A stretch of 45,695 bases of DNA from the NCBI GenBank assembly GCA_032325415.1, contig GCA_032325415.1_4119.2. One strand, written 5' to 3'. The translations under genes were made by a program, and so were the position numbers. The notes under the pieces are model-generated. The model searched no databases and was not told the origin of the DNA. It saw only the letters and a program-made list of their open reading frames with translations. This stretch comes from a phage. Below are positions 3,748 through 19,670 of this stretch, in pieces (position 1 is the stretch's first letter; each line of letters opens with the position of its first letter).

Positions 3748-3777
3748 GAAGTTTACAAATCTTTACAATTGCCGGTA

Positions 3778-3806
3778 TTGACTTATTTTGTCAGTACTGG
3801 CATAAT
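3778..3806 (+). promoter_or_regulatory. sigma70-like promoter with no ORF downstream
   Basis: -35 TTGACT 3778-3783, 17-bp spacer, -10 CATAAT 3801-3806. Confidence 0.5.
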
Positions 3807-3960
3807 GTATTCATTGGCAGATAAGCCGTAGCCCATAGGGTGCGGGAGTGTATCTATAGCAAAATTAGTTTAGTATAGTTACAATTGTGCACCCGGTGGG
3901 TTAGCTGTTGTCATGGGGTATATTATGCCAGTACTTGATAATGCTGTCAATACTTTTTTA
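3807..3960 (+). other. candidate structured non-coding transcript carrying GCCCATAGGGTGC and its inverted partner GCACCCGGTGGG
   Basis: No ORF; the two motif copies are about 50 nt apart in opposite orientation and could pair; ends in T-run near 3950. Confidence 0.3.
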
Positions 3961-3989
3961 CTATTCAGTACTGAAAACTATTTTTAAAA

Positions 3990-6001: not shown

Positions 6002-6223
6002 ATGGCTAATATCACTACTCTTTCCCAACTGGAAGCACTGGTTAAATCTATGCGGGAACATGCTGACAAAATCGGCGTACAAGATCCAGCCGTTTGCTTC
6101 TGCGACGAATTGAATGATGATACCCTGGTAATAGCAGAAGTCCAGGACGTTTCTAACTATTCCTCGCGTTACACTGGCGGCGTAGCAAATAAAGGCGACT
6201 TCTGTTTATACCTTACAAAATAA
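6002..6223 (+). CDS. hypothetical protein (73 aa)
   Basis: SD GAGGAAA then ATG 6002, in frame with track ORF 5972 whose start lies in the leader hairpin. Confidence 0.65.
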   Translation: MANITTLSQLEALVKSMREHADKIGVQDPAVCFCDELNDDTLVIAEVQDVSNYSSRYTGGVANKGDFCLYLTK

Positions 6224-6228
6224 CAACG

Positions 6229-6258
6229 CGGGGAGATAATAACTCCCCGTTACTTTTT
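6229..6258 (+). terminator. rho-independent terminator
   Basis: CGGGGAG-ATAATAA-CTCCCCG followed by TTACTTTTT. Confidence 0.7.
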
Positions 6259-6391
6259 CAGTACTGAATCATTTAATAGACGGATCTCGGCACCCGGTGG
6301 GTTAGTGACTGTTTCGTCTTGATGTAGTAATTATGCCAGTACTGGATGCACTTGTCAACAATTATTTTTCAAATACTTTTTATTAAAATAC

Positions 6392-7572: not shown

Positions 7573-8055
7573 ATGGCTAATGTAAAATCATTCATCAAAG
7601 CACTGGTAGCAAATGAAACTAACGTCGCGGCTGAGATCCTGGCTGAACTGGATAACGATACCATGAAAGCGGTACGCAATAATTTTAACATCGCTTACAG
7701 TACTGCGAAAGAACTACAAGCAAATAAAGCGGCAGAAATTGAAGCGGCAAAGGCGGCCCGTGAAGCAGAACTACAAGCAACAATCGAAAGTATTCAGGCG
7801 GCAGTAGTTGGATTGGATCTGGAAGTAGTTACAGAGATGGCACAAAAAGCCCTGGCGGTTAAGTATGGGGAAGACAAGCCAGAAGTAAAAGCCAAAAAAT
7901 GGATTCAGGAACGCGTAGCGGTAGTACTGGACAACGGGGAAGAATATCTGATTCCGGTGCGTGGTAACTGCATTGCGGTAGTACTGGACGCGATTAACGC
8001 CAGCGGTATGACTCGCGAGGAATGGATCGAATCTCATCGCAAAGTTGAAGCATAA
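7573..8055 (+). CDS. hypothetical Ala/Glu-rich protein (160 aa)
   Basis: SD TGAGGAT then ATG 7573, in frame with track ORF 7558. Confidence 0.65.
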   Translation: MANVKSFIKALVANETNVAAEILAELDNDTMKAVRNNFNIAYSTAKELQANKAAEIEAAKAAREAELQATIESIQAAVVGLDLEVVTEMAQKALAVKYGEDKPEVKAKKWIQERVAVVLDNGEEYLIPVRGNCIAVVLDAINASGMTREEWIESHRKVEA

Positions 8056-10332: not shown

Positions 10333-10360
10333 TTGCAATTAGTTTTTAGTACTGTATAAT
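10333..10360 (+). promoter_or_regulatory. sigma70-like promoter (cassette type)
   Basis: -35 TTGCAA 10333-10338, 16-bp spacer with CAGTACTG, -10 TATAAT 10355-10360; hairpin GGGGAGAA-ATGA-TTCTCCCC. Confidence 0.65.
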
Positions 10361-10410
10361 GTTTTACATGAAGGGGAGAAATGATTCTCCCCAATAACAG
10401 GAGAAACAAA

Positions 10411-10563
10411 ATGAAACAATACAACGCTCGGTTTGATGTTACTATCGGTAACGGCAAAGGTCAATTCTCTTTCAGTACTCGCCGCAGTTATACAGAAAAC
10501 TTCCTGCGTAATTGTGCACTGACCGCCGCTCAAATTAAACATTACTTTCAGGCTAAAAAATGA
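10411..10563 (+). CDS. small protein (50 aa)
   Basis: SD CAGGAGA then ATG 10411, in frame with track ORF 10381. Confidence 0.55.
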   Translation: MKQYNARFDVTIGNGKGQFSFSTRRSYTENFLRNCALTAAQIKHYFQAKK

Positions 10564-10649
10564 GATCATTAGCTTATTACAGTTCGGCCCTGGTCGGTGC
10601 ATTGATCGCGGCGTTGTTAGTAACCTATCTATTCTTTATGGTGATTTAA
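10560..10649 (+). CDS. small hydrophobic membrane peptide (29 aa)
   Basis: ATG 10560 overlaps upstream stop (ATGA); MRSLAYYSSALVGALIAALLVTYLFFMVI is a single predicted transmembrane helix; not in track. Confidence 0.45.
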   Translation: MRSLAYYSSALVGALIAALLVTYLFFMVI

Positions 10650-10784
10650 ATGAATCCTAACGGTATAGTTTACAGTACTCCTAAAACGAAAGCAGATAAA
10701 GCTAAAGCACGTAAAGCGAAAGTAAAGGAGTACATCAAGCAAGGCATGACACGAAAGGCCGCAGTACTTAAAGCTAAAAAATAA
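10650..10784 (+). CDS. small Lys-rich basic protein (44 aa)
   Basis: ATG 10650 directly follows the previous stop (TAAATG); MNPNGIVYSTPKTKADKAKARKAKVKEYIKQGMTRKAAVLKAKK; not in track. Confidence 0.4.
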   Translation: MNPNGIVYSTPKTKADKAKARKAKVKEYIKQGMTRKAAVLKAKK

Positions 10785-10787
10785 ATG

Positions 10788-10882
10788 AAAAAAGTGGTTG
10801 ACTTCGGTCAGCCATTTTGCTATTATATATTCATTGAGAGATAGCTCACTAGCCCACAGGGTGCAGGAGTGTATCTATTATA
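10788..10882 (+). repeat. R module copy 1: terminator-like hairpin with embedded promoter plus conserved core AGCCCACAGGGTGCAGGAGTGTATCT
   Basis: Hairpin GTGGTTGAC-TTCG-GTCAGCCAT (wobble-compensated), -35 TTGACT 10798-10803, -10 TATTAT 10821-10826; homologous to 14813, 17527, 19497. Confidence 0.65.
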
Positions 10883-10920
10883 TGAGTATTGAGTACTGAA
10901 AACTATTTTTAAAAAAGTAC

Positions 10921-10948
10921 TTGCAAACTATCTCAATAAGCGTATAAT
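10921..10948 (+). promoter_or_regulatory. sigma70-like promoter (cassette type)
   Basis: -35 TTGCAA 10921-10926, 16-bp spacer, -10 TATAAT 10943-10948; hairpin AGGGGAAAC-G-GTTTCCCCT. Confidence 0.65.
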
Positions 10949-10999
10949 GTTTTACATCGAAAGGGGAAACGGTTTCCCCTGGTAATAAGGAAACAAATC

Positions 11000-11341
11000 A
11001 TGACTATCTCAATTGCTCAATCTAACTTTGAAAATGAAATCATCGCCCAGGCACTGCGTTTAAATGATGGTCGGGCCGAAATTAATTACGGTTTCAATTC
11101 AGGCGGTTGTGAAAAATATCAGTACTTTGTAACGGCTGATGGCGGTGTCCTGGGTATCAATACAGTTATTGTAAACATCCAAAAAATTAATTTCAATGAT
11201 CCAGAGGATAGCCAGTTTTACATCACTGGCGTAGACGTGAACTATGAGGATGACTCACTAACTGATGATCACACTGGTGAGCGGTTAGAAAGTGCATACG
11301 GTGAAGATGATTATCAGTCCGGTCCAGAAGATTTCGAATAA
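11000..11341 (+). CDS. hypothetical acidic protein (113 aa)
   Basis: SD TAAGGAAA then ATG 11000; track ORF. Confidence 0.65.
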   Translation: MTISIAQSNFENEIIAQALRLNDGRAEINYGFNSGGCEKYQYFVTADGGVLGINTVIVNIQKINFNDPEDSQFYITGVDVNYEDDSLTDDHTGERLESAYGEDDYQSGPEDFE

Positions 11342-11355
11342 TATAAAAAAATAGT

Positions 11356-11383
11356 TTGACAATAGATTATAGTACTGTATAAT
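11356..11383 (+). promoter_or_regulatory. sigma70-like promoter (cassette type)
   Basis: -35 TTGACA 11356-11361, 16-bp spacer with AGTACTG, -10 TATAAT 11378-11383; hairpin GGGGAGAA-TAG-TTCTCCCC. Confidence 0.65.
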
Positions 11384-11436
11384 AGTTTACATCAAGGGGA
11401 GAATAGTTCTCCCCACTAACAGAGAGAGAAAACAAA

Positions 11437-11649
11437 ATGGCTAATATCCGGTCGAAATTAAAAAATGCAAAACAAGTTTTATTTTCAGATCATGAATACT
11501 TTAATAAAGATATTACAGGAGTTACAAGTATCAAGGAAGTAAAAGAAAAAACCGGCGTTTTGTGTGATGTGCGATTAGTTGGAACATTTGGGAATAACGT
11601 GCTATATCGCTGCGGTGATTACAATTTTACACTGACTATCATTAACTAA
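11437..11649 (+). CDS. hypothetical protein (70 aa)
   Basis: ATG 11437 after AGAGAGAGAAAACAAA leader; track ORF. Confidence 0.6.
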   Translation: MANIRSKLKNAKQVLFSDHEYFNKDITGVTSIKEVKEKTGVLCDVRLVGTFGNNVLYRCGDYNFTLTIIN

Positions 11650-11661
11650 AAATATTATCAC

Positions 11662-11697
11662 AGTACTATTGACATAGTTTGATAGTACTGACATAAT
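11662..11697 (+). promoter_or_regulatory. promoter with operator-like inverted repeat AGTACTAT-N12-ATAGTACT
   Basis: AGTACTAT 11662-11669, -35 TTGACA 11669-11674, ATAGTACT 11682-11689, -10 CATAAT 11692-11697. Confidence 0.6.
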
Positions 11698-11731
11698 AAC
11701 TTTTATCAACTACACTACTAAGGAATTAAAA

Positions 11732-11911
11732 ATGGCTATCATCGCAAAAACTGAAATCATCGGCCTGGATTCTATCATCATGACGTTTGAAGATCAAAAA
11801 GGTATGTATGTGGTTTCCTATGGTGATTATGTTCGGGAGTATGAAACGGTAGACGAAGCCTTTGAAAGTTACATTCGCCAGGTGAATAAAGCATACGACG
11901 ACTACCGCTAA
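11732..11911 (+). CDS. small protein (59 aa), not in ORF track
   Basis: SD TAAGGAAT then ATG 11732; ORF MAIIAKTEIIGLDSIIMTFEDQKGMYVVSYGDYVREYETVDEAFESYIRQVNKAYDDYR; the minus-strand track ORF 11778..11978 is rejected. Confidence 0.55.
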   Translation: MAIIAKTEIIGLDSIIMTFEDQKGMYVVSYGDYVREYETVDEAFESYIRQVNKAYDDYR

Positions 11912-11922
11912 AATATATTACC

Positions 11923-11966
11923 AGTACTATTAAATCTATTGACAATGTTTGATAGTACTGTATAAT
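11923..11966 (+). promoter_or_regulatory. promoter with operator-like inverted repeat AGTACTAT-N21-ATAGTACT
   Basis: AGTACTAT 11923-11930, -35 TTGACA 11939-11944, ATAGTACT 11952-11959, -10 TATAAT 11961-11966. Confidence 0.6.
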
Positions 11967-12010
11967 AAGTTTTATCAACAGTAGTTAACTTAACCTAAGA
12001 GAGAAACAAA

Positions 12011-12154
12011 ATGATCGCACTGGATTCATTCATCGACGCAGTACTGGCAAAAACTGGCGAGGATCTGACCGCAGAACAATACGCGATGATCGAGCAATGC
12101 CAGCAAGACGGTAAATCGGTGAAAGATACTGTTAAGATTATCCGCAAGATGTAA
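12011..12154 (+). CDS. small protein (47 aa), not in ORF track
   Basis: SD TAAGAGAGA then ATG 12011; ORF MIALDSFIDAVLAKTGEDLTAEQYAMIEQCQQDGKSVKDTVKIIRKM; followed by terminator. Confidence 0.5.
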   Translation: MIALDSFIDAVLAKTGEDLTAEQYAMIEQCQQDGKSVKDTVKIIRKM

Positions 12155-12160
12155 GATTAT

Positions 12161-12190
12161 AGCCCACTGGTTAACGCTGGTGGGCTTTAA
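12161..12190 (+). terminator. probable rho-independent terminator
   Basis: AGCCCAC-TGGTTAACGC-TGGTGGGCT hairpin then TTTAATT (weak T-run). Confidence 0.55.
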
Positions 12191-12259
12191 TTCATTACCC
12201 TATACAATGCCAGTACTACACCGTTTATCTCGTTAGAATGCGTTACAGGACGTTTGACA

Positions 12260-12457
12260 ATGATTAGCATGAAATCAGTACAAAAACAAATAGAAACATT
12301 ATCAAAAATTAAACGTAAACAGTACTCCTTAGAATATACAATCAATGGTAACTATCATCTAATGAAAGAGAATAATTTTATCGTCATTGATGAATCATTG
12401 CAAATCATTAGTATAGTACTGAAAGCATTAATCAATGACAGAAAAAAATTAAAATAA
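12260..12457 (+). CDS. hypothetical AT-rich protein (65 aa)
   Basis: Track ORF; ATG 12260 with SD-like AGGACG 7 nt upstream; no cassette promoter; composition differs from neighbours. Confidence 0.4.
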   Translation: MISMKSVQKQIETLSKIKRKQYSLEYTINGNYHLMKENNFIVIDESLQIISIVLKALINDRKKLK

Positions 12458-12461
12458 ACTA

Positions 12462-12490
12462 TTGACAATATCATCAAGTACTGGCATAAT
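12462..12490 (+). promoter_or_regulatory. sigma70-like promoter
   Basis: -35 TTGACA 12462-12467, 17-bp spacer with AGTACTG, -10 CATAAT 12485-12490. Confidence 0.55.
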
Positions 12491-12541
12491 ACTTACATCA
12501 AGACGAGAACGTCACTAACCCATAGGGTGCACAAATGTAAC

Positions 12542-12625
12542 TGTATAATATTGATCAAAAAATGATCTGATCAATACTTGATCAATTTGCGTAAAGTAGT
12601 ATAATTCTGATCAATTCTTGATCAA
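12542..12625. promoter_or_regulatory. cluster of six GATC sites (five within TGATCAA palindromes) flanked by extended -10-like elements
   Basis: GATC at 12553, 12564, 12569, 12580, 12609, 12620; TGTATAAT 12542-12549 and TAGTATAAT 12597-12605. Confidence 0.55.
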
Positions 12626-12786
12626 AGGCAATAAACGCAGTTGAATTTATATAGACAATACAAAGGCGTTACTATCCGTGGTAATGCTGGTGGATATGTA
12701 GTATCATATGGTTTGAATAAGATTAGCACTAGTAGTATTATTGTAGCATTACAGTACTATAGTATTTTTATAATGAGGTTAAAATA

Positions 12787-13044
12787 ATGGCTGTTGGATT
12801 CGCGAAGGACGGGGCCGAGCAAGACGAGATTAACGCAGTGATTCAGGCCGCTGTAAACCACGCTAGAACGCAAATTAACGCACAAATAGAATCACTGATA
12901 CATTGCCTCGACTGTGGCGATAAAATCCCTGAGAATCGCCGCCAGGTCGTTAAGGGGTGTAAGTACTGTATCACTTGCCAGGAGGATCATGATAGTACTT
13001 TTAAACGTCAACCGCGTAATTGTTGGCATAGATCTATGAGATAA
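12787..13044 (+). CDS. TraR/DksA-family C4 zinc-finger protein (85 aa), likely RNA-polymerase-binding regulator
   Basis: CLDCGDKIPENRRQVVKGCKYCITCQ matches the TraR/DksA zinc-finger pattern CxxCG-x-IP-x-x-RR ... CxxCQ (compare F-plasmid TraR CEACGNPIPEARRK...CVECQ). Confidence 0.8.
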   Translation: MAVGFAKDGAEQDEINAVIQAAVNHARTQINAQIESLIHCLDCGDKIPENRRQVVKGCKYCITCQEDHDSTFKRQPRNCWHRSMR

Positions 13045-13050
13045 AAAGTA

Positions 13051-13078
13051 TTGACAGTACTGAAAGATAGTGTATAAT
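13051..13078 (+). promoter_or_regulatory. sigma70-like promoter
   Basis: -35 TTGACA 13051-13056, 16-bp spacer with AGTACTG, -10 TATAAT 13073-13078. Confidence 0.6.
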
Positions 13079-13107
13079 GTTTTATATCTTAACTGAGGAT
13101 AGAAATC

Positions 13108-13464
13108 ATGGGAATACAACATATCACGCGTACTACTGACAATGGCGAGATCACTGGCTATCAAGTACAGGGCAAAGTAGCACAATTGCAGTACTGGTTT
13201 GTTAAACGTGGAATCATTGCACCGGATCTTGATTATGACCGTGTAGCGTTTATTGATTCTCTTTATGTTGATCCTGATAGTCGGGGGAATGGTGAAGGTA
13301 ACGAATTAATGAATGCCTTTATTGATGCCGCCGATGATTCAGATTGTATCATCTTAGAATGCGATACGGGAGAAGATAACGCCTTTAATCTTAAAGAATG
13401 GTATGAAGGTTTCGGATTCGAGGTACTGATCGATAGTGAATATCCTATCATGATTTTATCATAG
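13108..13464 (+). CDS. putative GNAT-family N-acetyltransferase (118 aa)
   Basis: SLYVDPDSRGNGEGNELMNAF resembles GNAT motif A (R/Q-x-x-G-x-G/A acetyl-CoA loop) and EWYEGFGFE resembles motif B; SD TGAGGAT. Confidence 0.55.
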   Translation: MGIQHITRTTDNGEITGYQVQGKVAQLQYWFVKRGIIAPDLDYDRVAFIDSLYVDPDSRGNGEGNELMNAFIDAADDSDCIILECDTGEDNAFNLKEWYEGFGFEVLIDSEYPIMILS

Positions 13465-13467
13465 TAC

Positions 13468-13496
13468 TTGCATTTAGTTTTCAGTACTGTTATAGT
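13468..13496 (+). promoter_or_regulatory. sigma70-like promoter (cassette type)
   Basis: -35 TTGCAT 13468-13473, 17-bp spacer with CAGTACTG, -10 TATAGT 13491-13496; hairpin AGGGGAA-ACATC-TTCCCCT. Confidence 0.55.
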
Positions 13497-13542
13497 ACTT
13501 GCATCAAGGGGAAACATCTTCCCCTACTAAGAGGAAATAAAA

Positions 13543-13731
13543 ATGGAAAACTTATCAAGTATTTTAGTACAAGATGATTTCGGTAATCCTGGAAGTGCTA
13601 TCATTGTTCGGGGTAATAAAGCAACATTTGTTATTGCTGGTGGACCTGTACAGCGTAGCATTAAAAACAATGCCGTTACTATTAATAATGTACGCTATCG
13701 CTTAGATAAAGAATTGATTCATAAACTGTAA
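13543..13731 (+). CDS. hypothetical protein (62 aa)
   Basis: SD TAAGAGGA then ATG 13543; track ORF. Confidence 0.6.
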   Translation: MENLSSILVQDDFGNPGSAIIVRGNKATFVIAGGPVQRSIKNNAVTINNVRYRLDKELIHKL

Positions 13732-13758
13732 TATTAATTTAATAGAGGATAACAATAA

Positions 13759-14082
13759 ATGTACATTCATACTACTATCACAAAGGAAGTCCGTTGCCAG
13801 TTCGAAAGTATTCCGGGCGTATGTTTCATCACTGGTACGTTTTCCCCTGGTGATCGTGATAATCCAGTACTGTTACAATTACGCCATCCATCATGGGATA
13901 AAGCATTTGATCTACCGTTGAATGAATTCGCAACTACTGCTGAAAAGTACATTAAAAATATTCGCGAGAATGATCGACTATTCATTAATGCTTTTAGTGA
14001 TTCCGCGTTAAGCGAGATCCACGGCGTATTGGTTGCAATCATGGAATCAATGCAGAAAACTAAATTCAAACAAGGTGAATAA
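13759..14082 (+). CDS. hypothetical protein (107 aa)
   Basis: SD AGAGGA then ATG 13759; track ORF; overlapping minus-strand ORF 13767..14177 rejected. Confidence 0.6.
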   Translation: MYIHTTITKEVRCQFESIPGVCFITGTFSPGDRDNPVLLQLRHPSWDKAFDLPLNEFATTAEKYIKNIRENDRLFINAFSDSALSEIHGVLVAIMESMQKTKFKQGE

Positions 14083-14088
14083 AAACTA

Positions 14089-14116
14089 TTGACAATGCAA
14101 TCCAGTACTGTATAAT
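14089..14116 (+). promoter_or_regulatory. sigma70-like promoter (cassette type)
   Basis: -35 TTGACA 14089-14094, 16-bp spacer with CAGTACTG, -10 TATAAT 14111-14116; hairpin GGGGAGAA-ATGA-TTCTCCCC. Confidence 0.65.
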
Positions 14117-14165
14117 AAGTTACATGAAGGGGAGAAATGATTCTCCCCACTGAGAGGAAAGAAAA

Positions 14166-14378
14166 ATGCAAGGTCAACTAATCGTTCGTAAATGGTCTGA
14201 TACTAACGAAAAACCGTGGGATGTACAATACATCGGACCGGATGGGGTATCACGTTATCAGCCTGGCGTAACGCATAGTACTGAGCAATTCGCCAACGCT
14301 CACCGCGAACGCCTGTTAGAATCCATGAAACAGGGATACGGTGAAAAATTCATTCAAGATCATTGGCTGAAAGATTAA
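14166..14378 (+). CDS. hypothetical protein (70 aa)
   Basis: SD TGAGAGGA then ATG 14166; track ORF. Confidence 0.65.
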   Translation: MQGQLIVRKWSDTNEKPWDVQYIGPDGVSRYQPGVTHSTEQFANAHRERLLESMKQGYGEKFIQDHWLKD

Positions 14379-14395
14379 TATAAGGAGTACAGCTT

Positions 14396-14488
14396 ATGCA
14401 AATGAATCCGATGATTATTGTTTTAGCTGTACTTATGATCATTCATGCAATAGTAGAAGTATTAACGCAATCAGGAGTAATAAAATGA
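14396..14488 (+). CDS. small hydrophobic membrane peptide (30 aa)
   Basis: Strong SD TAAGGAG then ATG 14396; MQMNPMIIVLAVLMIIHAIVEVLTQSGVIK; not in track. Confidence 0.5.
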   Translation: MQMNPMIIVLAVLMIIHAIVEVLTQSGVIK

Positions 14489-14658
14489 TTCAAGTAGAAT
14501 TATCAGTACTGAAAGATCTGTTTTATCGGTTAGGTACTACTGGAGAGTATCCTAAAAGTGATACCGCAAAACTTTTTGTATCACTCGACTTATGGCAACG
14601 CGAACAATTAGTAATGTCCTGGCGTAAAGGTAAAGCAGATAGCGAGGTGAAAGCATGA
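14485..14658 (+). CDS. small protein (57 aa)
   Basis: ATG 14485 overlaps upstream stop (ATGA) with SD CAGGAG inside the upstream ORF; not in track. Confidence 0.45.
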   Translation: MIQVELSVLKDLFYRLGTTGEYPKSDTAKLFVSLDLWQREQLVMSWRKGKADSEVKA

Positions 14659-14804
14659 AAGAATTCTTATTCGAAGTAGTGTTTCAAGGTGTCGGTAGTA
14701 ACCAACTGATTCGCTCAAGTGGTTATAATGTTAACCAGGCATGGAATAACATTAAACAAATGTACCCGAACGCTATCACCTATCGCAACCCGAAAGAAGT
14801 TTAA
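14655..14804 (+). CDS. small protein (49 aa)
   Basis: ATG 14655 overlaps upstream stop (ATGA); SD GAGGTG; not in track. Confidence 0.45.
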   Translation: MKEFLFEVVFQGVGSNQLIRSSGYNVNQAWNNIKQMYPNAITYRNPKEV

Positions 14805-14812
14805 AAATATTT

Positions 14813-14900
14813 GAAAAAGGGATTGACTCCGGTCAGTCCCTTTGCTATTATATACGCATAGAAACAAATCAGCCCACAGGGTGCATAAATGTATCTATTG
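14813..14900 (+). repeat. R module copy 2 (terminator-like hairpin, embedded promoter, conserved core)
   Basis: AAAAAGGGATTGACTCCGGTCAGTCCCTTT hairpin; -35 TTGACT 14823-14828, -10 TATTAT 14846-14851; core AGCCCACAGGGTGCATAAATGTATCT. Confidence 0.65.
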
Positions 14901-14935
14901 TTTGCTGGTGGCTAGTACTGAAAACTATTTTTAAA

Positions 14936-15117
14936 AAGTACTTGCATTGTACTTAGAATCAAGTATAATGTTTTACATCAGGACGGGGAACGAAACAAGT
15001 AACCCCGTTAAGTAGTCCAGGAGTAAGACATAAGAAAACCTCCCCTGATAAAATAGTTTGACAATAGAAAGTAAAAGAGTATAATACTTACATCAACCAC
15101 TGATAAGGAAACATAAA
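14936..15117 (+). repeat. dual-promoter leader module, copy 2 (near-identical to 3990-4172)
   Basis: Promoter A (-35 TTGCAT 14942-14947, -10 TATAAT 14964-14969), hairpin ACGGGGAA...CCCCGT, conserved AAGTAGTCCAGGAGTAAGACATAAGAAAACCTCCCCTGATAAAATAG, promoter B (-35 TTGACA 15058-15063, -10 TATAAT 15080-15085). Confidence 0.7.
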
Positions 15118-17526: not shown

Positions 17527-17612
17527 AAAAGATTAAAAAAGGGATTGACTCCGGTCAGTCCCTTTGCTATTATATATTCATTGAGAGATAACTCACTGAC
17601 CCATAGGGTGCG
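17527..17612 (+). repeat. R module copy 3 (terminator-like hairpin, embedded promoter, conserved core)
   Basis: AAAAAAGGGATTGACTCCGGTCAGTCCCTTT; -35 TTGACT 17545-17550, -10 TATTAT 17568-17573; core GACCCATAGGGTGCGGAAGTGTATCT. Confidence 0.65.
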
Positions 17613-17666
17613 GAAGTGTATCTATTATATAAGTATTCAGTACTGAAAACTATTTTTAAAAAGTAC

Positions 17667-17694
17667 TTGCATTGTACTTAGAATCAAGTATAAT
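17667..17694 (+). promoter_or_regulatory. sigma70-like promoter (cassette type)
   Basis: -35 TTGCAT 17667-17672, 16-bp spacer, -10 TATAAT 17689-17694; hairpin GAGAGGGGAA-ATGG-TTCTCCCTC. Confidence 0.65.
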
Positions 17695-19232: not shown

Positions 19233-19490
19233 ATGGAACAGTTCACACAATATCGGGTAAATCCTCAAGCTATGGCCTACGTAGAAGACCATAAAACATT
19301 ACCAGTACTGCAACCAGTTAAAGGCCATATCTATCGTGCTATGTCGTGGAGTACGGCCCAGGATGGCTATAAAACCGTAGCCGTTGGTATGTATTGCGGG
19401 AATGGTGAATGGTTTGATCCAAATAATCCGGTAGCCATTGACAGTACTGAAAAAATGAAATGGGCCGACTACATCGAAGATATTTCATAA
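19233..19490 (+). CDS. hypothetical protein (85 aa)
   Basis: SD AAGGGGA then ATG 19233; track ORF. Confidence 0.6.
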   Translation: MEQFTQYRVNPQAMAYVEDHKTLPVLQPVKGHIYRAMSWSTAQDGYKTVAVGMYCGNGEWFDPNNPVAIDSTEKMKWADYIEDIS

Positions 19491-19496
19491 AAAGAA

Positions 19497-19585
19497 TAAA
19501 AAAGGGATTGACTCCGGTCAGTCCCTTTGCTATTATATACGCATAGACAAAAACTAGCCCACAGGGTGCATAGGTGTATCTAAAA
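19497..19585 (+). repeat. R module copy 4 (terminator-like hairpin, embedded promoter, conserved core)
   Basis: AAAAAAGGGATTGACTCCGGTCAGTCCCTTT; -35 TTGACT 19508-19513, -10 TATTAT 19531-19536; core AGCCCACAGGGTGCATAGGTGTATCT. Confidence 0.65.
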
Positions 19586-19670
19586 TATATAGTTAATAAC
19601 GGTGAGTAACTATCTGCTGGTGGATGTACTGCCAGTACTCAAGGGAACTAAAACTATTAATAAAAAAGTA

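Follow-up and report, generated by a model that had tools for sequence, protein, structure and literature searches.

Do the shortest open reading frames (ORFs) in the early region of a jumbo phage encode real proteins, and what could be the role of two of them that specify hydrophobic peptides of 29 and 30 amino acids (aa)? This question is raised by contig GCA_032325415.1_4119.2 of GenBank assembly GCA_032325415.1, a stretch of 45,695 nucleotides (nt) of phage DNA, hereafter called the window. A preliminary description had pointed to five translationally coupled micro-ORFs in it between positions 10560 and 14804 and had suggested that small membrane peptides of this kind can act as host-membrane effectors, toxins or lysis regulators. 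Using megablast and the annotations of the matching records, we assigned the window to an Asteriusvirus jumbo phage of the PBECO4/121Q/G17 type; the 4.7-kb stretch around the micro-ORFs shares 92-97% identity with the Escherichia and Salmonella Asteriusvirus phages PBECO4, 121Q, G17, ELP-22 and others (~350 kb). The explanation that we consider fairly probable is that the five micro-ORFs are genuine genes, the distal cistrons of two short early Asteriusvirus operons located in a terminal repeat of ~21 kb, and that two of them specify single-helix membrane peptides.

All five micro-ORFs were listed by an ORF-finding program at exactly the coordinates of the preliminary description. Their coupled arrangement, with ATGA overlaps and abutting TAA/ATG, could be read from the sequence, and the TAAGGAG Shine-Dalgarno (SD) sequence claimed for the 30-aa ORF is present. 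Sigma-70 promoters and intrinsic terminators were located by a consensus scan, giving an operon A that spans 10333-10818 and an operon B that spans 14089-14843, with the following features:

10333-10360, + strand: operon A promoter, TTGCAA-16-TATAAT, a member of a repeated promoter family (consensus scan, repeat families D1-D4)
10373-10392, + strand: operon A 5' leader stem-loop, GGGGAGA-aatgat-TCTCCCC (sequence reading, repeat family D4)
10399-10403, + strand: SD AGGAG after the operon A stem-loop (sequence reading)
10411-10563, + strand: 50-aa operon-leader gene, phrog_7119 (a family without assigned function), ratio of nonsynonymous to synonymous substitution rates (dN/dS) 0.17
10560-10649, + strand: gene of the 29-aa hydrophobic peptide, MRSLAYYSSALVGALIAALLVTYLFFMVI; its ATG overlaps the TGA of the leader gene (ATGA, 10560-10563)
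10650-10784, + strand: gene of the 44-aa Lys-rich basic protein, phrog_29913; its ATG at 10650 abuts the TAA of the 29-aa gene (10647-10649)
10791-10818, + strand: operon A intrinsic terminator, a hairpin plus T-run whose stem holds the -35 hexamer TTGACT of the next unit (scan, family D7, G17 annotation)
14089-14116, + strand: operon B promoter, TTGACA-16-TATAAT, a 12/12 match to the consensus (consensus scan)
14129-14148, + strand: operon B 5' leader stem-loop, GGGGAGA-aatgat-TCTCCCC (sequence reading, repeat family D4)
14166-14378, + strand: 70-aa operon-leader gene, phrog_13428 (a family without assigned function), dN/dS 0.13
14381-14387, + strand: SD TAAGGAG of the 30-aa gene, 8 nt 5' of the ATG (sequence reading)
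14396-14488, + strand: gene of the 30-aa hydrophobic peptide, MQMNPMIIVLAVLMIIHAIVEVLTQSGVIK, an accessory cassette
14485-14658, + strand: 57-aa gene, phrog_10572; ATGA overlap with the 30-aa gene at 14485
14655-14804, + strand: 49-aa gene, phrog_37188, dN/dS 0.13; ATGA overlap with the 57-aa gene at 14655
14816-14843, + strand: operon B intrinsic terminator, a hairpin in which the next unit again has its -35 hexamer (scan, family D7, G17 annotation)

Between the ends of each operon, the consensus scan found no further promoter or terminator on the + strand. With only the outer promoter and terminator present, the micro-ORFs are thus distal cistrons of a three-gene operon (A) and a four-gene operon (B). 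For the 57-aa gene, the SD is an AGGAG at 14473-14477, within the 30-aa gene. The neighboring genes are mostly monocistronic and are drawn from a repeated family of promoters with leader hairpins.

The coding status of the micro-ORFs was then assessed on an alignment of the homologous region of 21 relatives. dN/dS was calculated by the Nei-Gojobori method in the proposed frame and in the other five, and an excess of synonymous changes was evaluated with a binomial test. The reading frames were intact in every relative carrying the locus, except in the CMSTMSU record, which is marked 'UNVERIFIED' and has single-base frameshifts in this region, in longer genes too, consistent with sequencing errors. 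All indels in the reliable records were in frame, including the 6-nt indel that distinguishes two alleles of the 44-aa gene, and a 6-nt deletion within the 29-aa ORF of CMSTMSU was likewise in frame. For the 29-, 44-, 30-, 57- and 49-aa ORFs, dN/dS in the proposed frame was 0.21, 0.24, 0.32, 0.26 and 0.13, respectively, the 49-aa gene being the most strongly constrained of the five. In each case this was the minimum of the six frames (0.3-5.7 in the remaining ones), and the runner-up was the antisense frame sharing wobble positions, as expected. The synonymous excess gave P values of 0.014, 8.9e-7, 4.8e-4, 1.4e-5 and 3.3e-8 in the same order. This coding signal equals in strength that of the flanking 50- and 70-aa leader genes (0.17 and 0.13). 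By these comparative measures, the five micro-ORFs are genuine conserved protein-coding genes.

We then compared the properties of the products, using the best 19-residue Kyte-Doolittle windows, with literature values for the hydropathy and insertion-energy scales. The 29- and 30-aa products are transmembrane-like, as had been noted, with mean hydropathies of 2.69 and 2.67 (KdpF, 2.56; AcrZ, 3.08), and they are the only + strand entries among the 15 most hydrophobic of 346 six-frame ORFs of 25-60 aa. The summed apparent insertion energy was -3.4 kcal/mol for the 29-aa peptide and -0.6 kcal/mol for the 30-aa peptide. The 29-aa peptide has a basic N-terminus (Arg/Lys at position 2), two small-xxx-small ladders (S9-G13-A17 and A10-A14-A18) and an aromatic C-terminal YLFFMVI, and it ends inside the hydrophobic stretch. 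In the 30-aa peptide, a polar stripe runs along one helical face at positions 17 (H/Q), 21 (E) and 24 (T/S). Neither peptide contains Cys. A paralogous relationship between the two was rejected, since their similarity is no better than that of shuffles (z = 0.4).

The membrane character proposed for the micro-proteins applies to these two hydrophobic single-helix peptides; the other three products are soluble members of PHROG families. The operon partners are non-membrane proteins, with a maximum 19-residue Kyte-Doolittle mean of -0.49 to 0.63, and the 44-aa product is Lys-rich as described (12 Lys and 2 Arg, net charge +12). PHROG matches covered the full length of the 44-aa protein (phrog_29913, E = 5.8e-32, residues 1-44), the 57-aa protein (phrog_10572, 1.6e-27, residues 1-56) and the 49-aa protein (phrog_37188, 2.8e-40, residues 1-49), and none of these families carries functional information. 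A sequence search of the PDB returned nothing for these three proteins. The 57-aa protein was modeled as a three-helix bundle (predicted local distance difference test score [pLDDT] of 84, predicted template modeling score of 0.67), for which searches of the PDB and of viral fold libraries matched its own orthologs alone; the AlphaFold model of the leader gene was of low confidence (pLDDT 66) and was not used. Neither hydrophobic peptide belongs to a family of PHROG or Pfam. Pfam hits to SAM_SMF (leader gene) and T3SS_ATPase_C (44-aa protein) were rejected as sub-threshold noise.

The 30-aa peptide was found by a six-frame search in 22 phage records, all Asteriusvirus, and a HMMER search of 1.84 billion cluster representatives returned its own cluster alone. 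Its locus occurs in three arrangements. In that of the window, the leader gene is followed by the SD, the 30-aa ORF and the 57-aa gene, with no promoter within. In a second arrangement (Ecwhy_1, fEgEco12, JNE01, Turkey3, ph0011, WPEC3, UE-S1 and CMSTMSU), the 30-aa ORF is absent and a shorter module, consisting of a promoter, a GGGGA...TCCCC hairpin and an SD, directly drives the 57-aa gene; the peptide is thus dispensable. In the third (Turkey5, A4 and metagenomic contig L032), a promoter module of this second kind is followed by a divergent 29-aa allele (MHMNPFIVVIAIMMAVQAVLEYLSKAGVI) that abuts the 57-aa gene (TAAATG). This allele has 45-48% identity to the 30-aa peptide (z = 13.3 versus shuffles) and retains its length, MxMNP start and hydropathy profile. 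That the peptide is kept where coupling is unneeded argues that the product itself is under selection, beyond any role in coupling. In the fetched stretch of EJP2 (L020), homologs of both micro-ORF clusters are missing and the 70-aa leader gene runs into a terminator/RNA element.

The 29-aa peptide was recovered by tblastn from 36 phage records, again all Asteriusvirus, and its gene is always located directly 3' of the 50-aa phrog_7119 leader gene. Its replacements among relatives are all conservative (R/K, S/T, L/M, L/V, V/I, T/A and G/V). Homologs of the leader, at 46-57% identity, occur in Klebsiella Alcyoneusvirus, rV5-like Vequintavirinae and CR3/CR9-like phages. In K64-1, RaK2 and RCIP0023, a hydrophobic unannotated ORF (MIVKVLTTIIQYCIITGVAFVLAVAIVFSTVIVLGNIL) follows the leader homolog; this Alcyoneusvirus micro-ORF is 38-51 aa long and has the phrog_7119 homolog on one side and a 101-aa gene on the other:

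K64-1 (L024), 850-966: hydrophobic micro-ORF
RaK2 (L029), ~7821-7937: hydrophobic micro-ORF
RCIP0023 (L027), 811-966: hydrophobic micro-ORF

In K64-1, the micro-ORF is coupled at both ends, its ATG overlapping the leader stop (TAATG) and its stop overlapping the next start (ATGA). In RCIP0023, the corresponding ATG is lost and an upstream in-frame ATG remains, and the start there is uncertain. L030 and L031, two metagenomic contigs, have a leader gene of 72% identity followed by (M/L)KKWLMLVLTYSTITITAAVMAVLAVFLFFTLI. Against the 29-aa peptide, this sequence scored 48, compared with 24.1 ± 4.4 for shuffles that kept the composition (z = 5.4; 0.04% of shuffles), a significant similarity; its similarity to the K64-1 peptide is suggestive (z = 2.9). 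A hydrophobic ORF of <55 aa at or overlapping the stop of a phrog_7119 homolog was found in the window, in 20 Asteriusvirus relatives, in L030/L031 and in K64-1, RaK2 and RCIP0023. By this comparison, the pairing of leader and hydrophobic micro-ORF is conserved within RaK2-like phages.

The early-region setting given in the preliminary description agrees with the consensus sigma-70 promoters and with a direct terminal repeat recognized by homology to fEgEco12 and other records. fEgEco12 has a direct terminal repeat of 20,993 bp that was confirmed by restriction digests (PMC13070987). Its homologs of the genes of the micro-ORF region, at 9.2-13.5 kb, fall within this repeat, which places the micro-ORF locus, by homology, in a direct terminal repeat of ~21 kb. 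The vB_Ec-M-J record labels the corresponding region as a direct terminal repeat, and the peptide genes are present twice in records assembled with both repeats. In the related phage CBB, the equivalent region carries short hypothetical ORFs behind RpoD-like promoters and was regarded as an early/host-takeover region (PMC5259590). Both operons are presumably expressed early. No tRNA gene or Rfam family was found within the window, and an IMG/VR search with both operons matched 121Q alone.

How the two hydrophobic peptides might act was considered by comparison with known systems. They fall in the size range of the small inner-membrane proteins of enterobacteria KdpF (29 aa), AcrZ (49 aa), MgtS (31 aa) and PmrR (29 aa), which likewise have one hydrophobic helix of ~19-20 residues with almost no extramembrane sequence and are small cistrons in operons; as judged by hydropathy only, both phage peptides have the single transmembrane domain and length of <50 aa of this type. 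There is no sequence similarity, however, and whereas KdpF-type proteins bind a large transporter or sensor, often of the same operon, the partners of the phage peptides are soluble proteins of 44-70 aa encoded by viral genes. Type I toxins (TisB, 29 aa; IbsC, 19 aa; ShoB, 26 aa; Hok/Ldr) are also short hydrophobic alpha-helical peptides, and the two phage products are of the corresponding size (<~60 aa) and hydrophobicity; the polar stripe of the 30-aa peptide is reminiscent of TisB. Unlike type I toxin genes, the phage genes are distal cistrons of constitutive-looking early operons and not stand-alone loci, and their products have no sequence similarity to these toxins. By consensus scan only, no minus-strand promoter-like site that could give an antisense RNA was found in or next to 10560-10649 or 14396-14488.

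Nor do the operons resemble a holin/antiholin/spanin lysis cassette, since besides the peptides they hold only proteins of 44-70 aa, have sigma-70 promoters and lie in the early region; neither peptide has the charged C-terminal tail of a holin or the lipobox Cys of an o-spanin. T4 Imm, Sp and rI and the T5 pre-early genes are early genes with host-type promoters whose products act at the host envelope, and the T5 terminal repeat carries the pre-early genes and enters the cell first. The micro-ORFs are similarly located in an early region behind host-type promoters and, as in T5, in a terminal repeat. In contrast, the early membrane proteins of T4 and T5 are two to three times longer, have soluble domains and show no homology to the phage peptides, which gave no Pfam or PHROG match that would relate them to Imm or Sp.

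We propose that host sigma-70 RNA polymerase would read each operon from its consensus promoter to its intrinsic terminator; each operon opens with the 5' stem-loop and a strong ribosome-binding site on the 50- or 70-aa leader gene. Ribosomes ending one cistron would re-initiate at the overlapping or abutting junctions (ATGA, TAAATG), so that the micro-proteins are probably made in step with their operon partners. The 29-aa product would be a single-pass inner-membrane peptide with its basic N-terminus in the cytoplasm and a helix of ~20 residues with a small-xxx-small packing face; most likely, it would pack helix to helix with a membrane protein or tether its soluble partners (the 50-aa and the basic 44-aa proteins) to the membrane. 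The 30-aa product would form a second hydrophobic helix, marked by its polar stripe, and is an optional cassette upstream of the soluble 57- and 49-aa proteins. We infer in this way the coupling, the membrane insertion and topology of the peptides and a role in modulating the host envelope.

Other explanations were weighed against this one. If the micro-ORFs were translated but their peptide sequence were irrelevant, they could serve as coupling spacers, or as regulators of the upstream-ORF type that pass ribosomes on to the following cistron or adjust its expression. Such a role would suit the stop/start overlap at every junction, the constraint that the 57-aa SD imposes on the last codons of the 30-aa ORF and the exchange of that ORF for a promoter and SD module with the downstream genes kept. 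Purifying selection at the amino acid level on all five ORFs speaks against it, as do the uniformly conservative replacements in the 29-aa peptide and the retention of the 30-aa peptide in Turkey5, A4 and L032 despite a promoter and SD directly upstream, where operon expression needs no coupling and where length, start and hydropathy are kept at 45-48% identity; we consider it quite improbable. That the ORFs are not expressed at all, and owe their conservation to overlapping RNA or DNA elements or to short divergence times, is very improbable. Most relatives are indeed 90-99% identical in the region, which is rich in conserved regulatory and RNA elements, and the 29-aa ORF has only 15 variable sites. 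However, changes cluster at third codon positions, every ORF has its lowest dN/dS in frame, indels preserve the frame, the 30-aa ORF stays open at 45-48% peptide identity and a similar peptide is still present next to a leader gene of only 72% identity. Such a pattern is not what a structural RNA would yield.

With respect to what the hydrophobic peptides do, they could be membrane-damaging toxins of the type I kind (TisB, Ibs, ShoB) or lysis-timing factors that depolarize or permeabilize the inner membrane. Their size and hydrophobicity resemble those of type I toxins, and the stripe at positions 17, 21 and 24 of the 30-aa peptide lies on one helical face, as in pore-forming small toxins. Yet the consensus scan revealed no antisense promoter or RNA overlapping either ORF, no endolysin, holin or spanin gene is located nearby, a charged holin tail is missing from both C-termini, and PHROG, Pfam and cluster-representative searches disclosed no sequence similarity to toxin or lysis families. 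Moreover, both genes are driven by constitutive consensus promoters in early operons, where immediate depolarization would harm the phage. We regard such an activity as unlikely, and the toxin, host-membrane effector or lysis-regulator role put forward in the preliminary description found no support, as there is no lysis gene, antisense promoter or homology to characterized membrane peptides. There is also a slim chance that the peptides are not integral and form buried helices in small cytoplasmic complexes with their soluble operon partners. These partners are small, and that of 57 aa was modeled as a bundle of three helices; the core of the 30-aa peptide includes His/Glu, its insertion energy is marginal, and coupled cotranslation would suit the assembly of a complex; against this, the 29-aa peptide has an uninterrupted hydrophobic stretch of 19 residues, an insertion energy of -3.4 kcal/mol and a basic N-terminus typical of membrane anchors, and would be unlikely to remain soluble. 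We consider it more likely that the peptides modulate or anchor at the inner membrane than that they act as toxins or in lysis, because the early promoters are constitutive, neither an antisense regulator nor lysis neighbors are present, and the linkage to soluble partners is tight.

Several observations weigh against the reading of the micro-ORFs as early genes with two membrane peptides. The 29-aa ORF has a weak SD (AGG) and the weakest statistics (P = 0.014), because its substitutions are few. In the literature searched, there is no transcript, ribosome-footprint or peptide evidence for Asteriusvirus early genes. Of the 20 fetched relatives in which the operon is kept, 8 (~40%) lack the 30-aa gene, and the rV5-like phage slur16 and CR9 carry the leader homolog without any hydrophobic peptide, so that the pairing is not obligatory for the leader protein; neither hydrophobic peptide is indispensable. 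Membrane insertion of both peptides is predicted from simple hydropathy scales only. The 30-aa peptide, with its marginal insertion energy (-0.6 kcal/mol; unfavorable, +2.2, in the Turkey5 allele) and its His17 and Glu21, may be amphipathic or peripheral. Finally, no homology, Pfam, PHROG or structural match points to a mechanism. The best-supported description is that the micro-proteins are ordinary but under-annotated early phage small proteins, of a sort typical of phage early regions.

A bolder conjecture, which is rather unlikely, is that RaK2-like jumbo phages (Asteriusvirus, Alcyoneusvirus and metagenomic intermediates) share a conserved early module with two components, the 50-aa leader and the coupled single-helix peptide. 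Its genes lie in the terminal repeat and would thus be among the first to enter the cell. The peptide, which evolves fast, would direct the module to the host inner membrane or anchor it there, for example in the control of genome entry, in superinfection exclusion or in disarming membrane-associated defense. The 30-aa peptide would then be a second, exchangeable membrane adaptor for the pair of 57- and 49-aa proteins.

The micro-ORFs are not new to databases, as several GenBank records list hypothetical proteins for them (for example, 121Q gp298 and phAPEC6 gp520c). The 29-aa gene is annotated in 6 of the 20 fetched relatives carrying it, and many records, among them UB, SP27, slurp01 and PBECO4, have no annotation for the 29- and 30-aa genes. 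In place of the 49-aa gene, an antisense ORF running into the terminator is annotated in ELP-22 (L001, 5273-5425) and SD-15 (L021, 4277-4429), probably a misannotation. A further small ORF in the window (12641-12787, + strand) is predicted only; it comprises 48 aa, has a TTG start, and its stop overlaps the ATG of a gene for a DksA-like zinc-finger protein. It is annotated in 121Q (gp293), fEgEco12, JNE01, Turkey3/5 and WPEC3, exists as two alleles with ~78% identity and is absent from G17, ph0011, phAPEC6 and UE-S1.

Repeated elements surround these genes. A conserved 5' leader stem-loop (GGGGAGA...TCTCCCC or GGGGAAAC...TTCCCC) immediately follows the -10 hexamer of many early promoters and precedes the SD, with copies in the window at 10354-10391, 10942-10979, 11377-11414, 13506-13542 and 14110-14147. 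The promoter-plus-hairpin module (window 14110-14171) has 85-87% identity to sequences of the Escherichia phages A73, W70, A7_1 and A5-4, of ~140 kb. In addition, the window, CBB (L028) and RaK2 (L029) share a multicopy and apparently undescribed structured-RNA family, found in the window at the following positions:

10780-10935, 14805-14960, 17527-17682, 19490-19645, 12446-12601 and 3759-3914, + strand: structured-RNA copies
1664-1819, 3818-3973 and 6219-6374, - strand: structured-RNA copies

Each element comprises a sigma-70 promoter, a stem-loop of 3-5 bp with a purine-rich loop and the invariant core CCCA-Y-M-GGGTGC, followed by TGTATCTAT; some copies terminate at an intrinsic terminator ~50 nt further on, giving a predicted RNA of ~100 nt. 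The core was observed 9 times in the window versus 0.03 expected. In a hairpin-versus-shuffle test, the 5' stem was present in 22 of the 27 copies from three genera, compared with 2.1 +/- 1.4 in shuffles, and its complementary arms came in 12 different combinations (compensatory covariation). Where two elements converge, they form long hairpins of -42 to -52 kcal/mol. In four window copies, including those at both micro-ORF operons, the upstream operon's terminator encloses the -35 hexamer. No match to the family was found in Rfam or in the literature. Exact matches to the pattern in viral contigs came nearly all from contigs 345-378 kb long, among them the RaK2-like phages RaK2, CBB, 121Q and GAP32, and one from a contig of 109 kb. 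Some GenBank records imply that the conserved CCCAYMGGGTGC element is a tiny gene for an (A/T)HRVxxC peptide; we rejected this because the candidate starts lie upstream of the predicted transcription start and because the 5' stem shows compensatory covariation. 'Hypothetical proteins' of 30-33 aa are annotated over the element in ELP-22 (L001, 1343-1444), E9.1 (L004, 6363-6455) and WPEC3 (L012, 837-938 and 5404-5496), again a probable misannotation.

The palindrome AGTACT (often CAGTACTG) occurs 201 times in the window, compared with 12.8 +/- 3.4 times in dinucleotide-preserving shuffles, a ~16-fold excess. Its distribution is patchy: copies are dense at 1-20.9 kb, at 26.0-28.7 kb and at 36.4-45.3 kb, and there are none at ~20.9-26.0 kb or at 28.7-36.4 kb. 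When hexamers are ranked by the ratio of observed to expected counts, AGTACT comes first in window 1-20.9 kb (21x) and in the terminal repeat of CBB (20x); in the early region of RaK2, its 18.5x is third behind the overlapping GTACTG (28x) and CAGTAC (24x). Promoter spacers (AGTACTGTATAAT) contain the palindrome, as do sites upstream of -35 hexamers, and 119 of its 201 copies are within genes. It could serve in protein binding, modification or nicking. The literature search gave no report of this overrepresentation.

Taken alone, the finding on the micro-ORFs is not surprising; the RNA family and the AGTACT palindrome look more unusual. The jumbo phages of this group encode ~550-750 genes, mostly without known function, and their smallest genes are annotated inconsistently. 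Comparative evidence of the kind used here sorts out the real micro-ORFs and yields a defensible gene list for the early region, in which the micro-ORFs form a shortlist of candidate host-takeover or envelope-targeting peptides. If the module of leader and hydrophobic peptide acts at the membrane, it would offer a tractable entry to the early biology of RaK2-like phages, several of which have been proposed for therapy.

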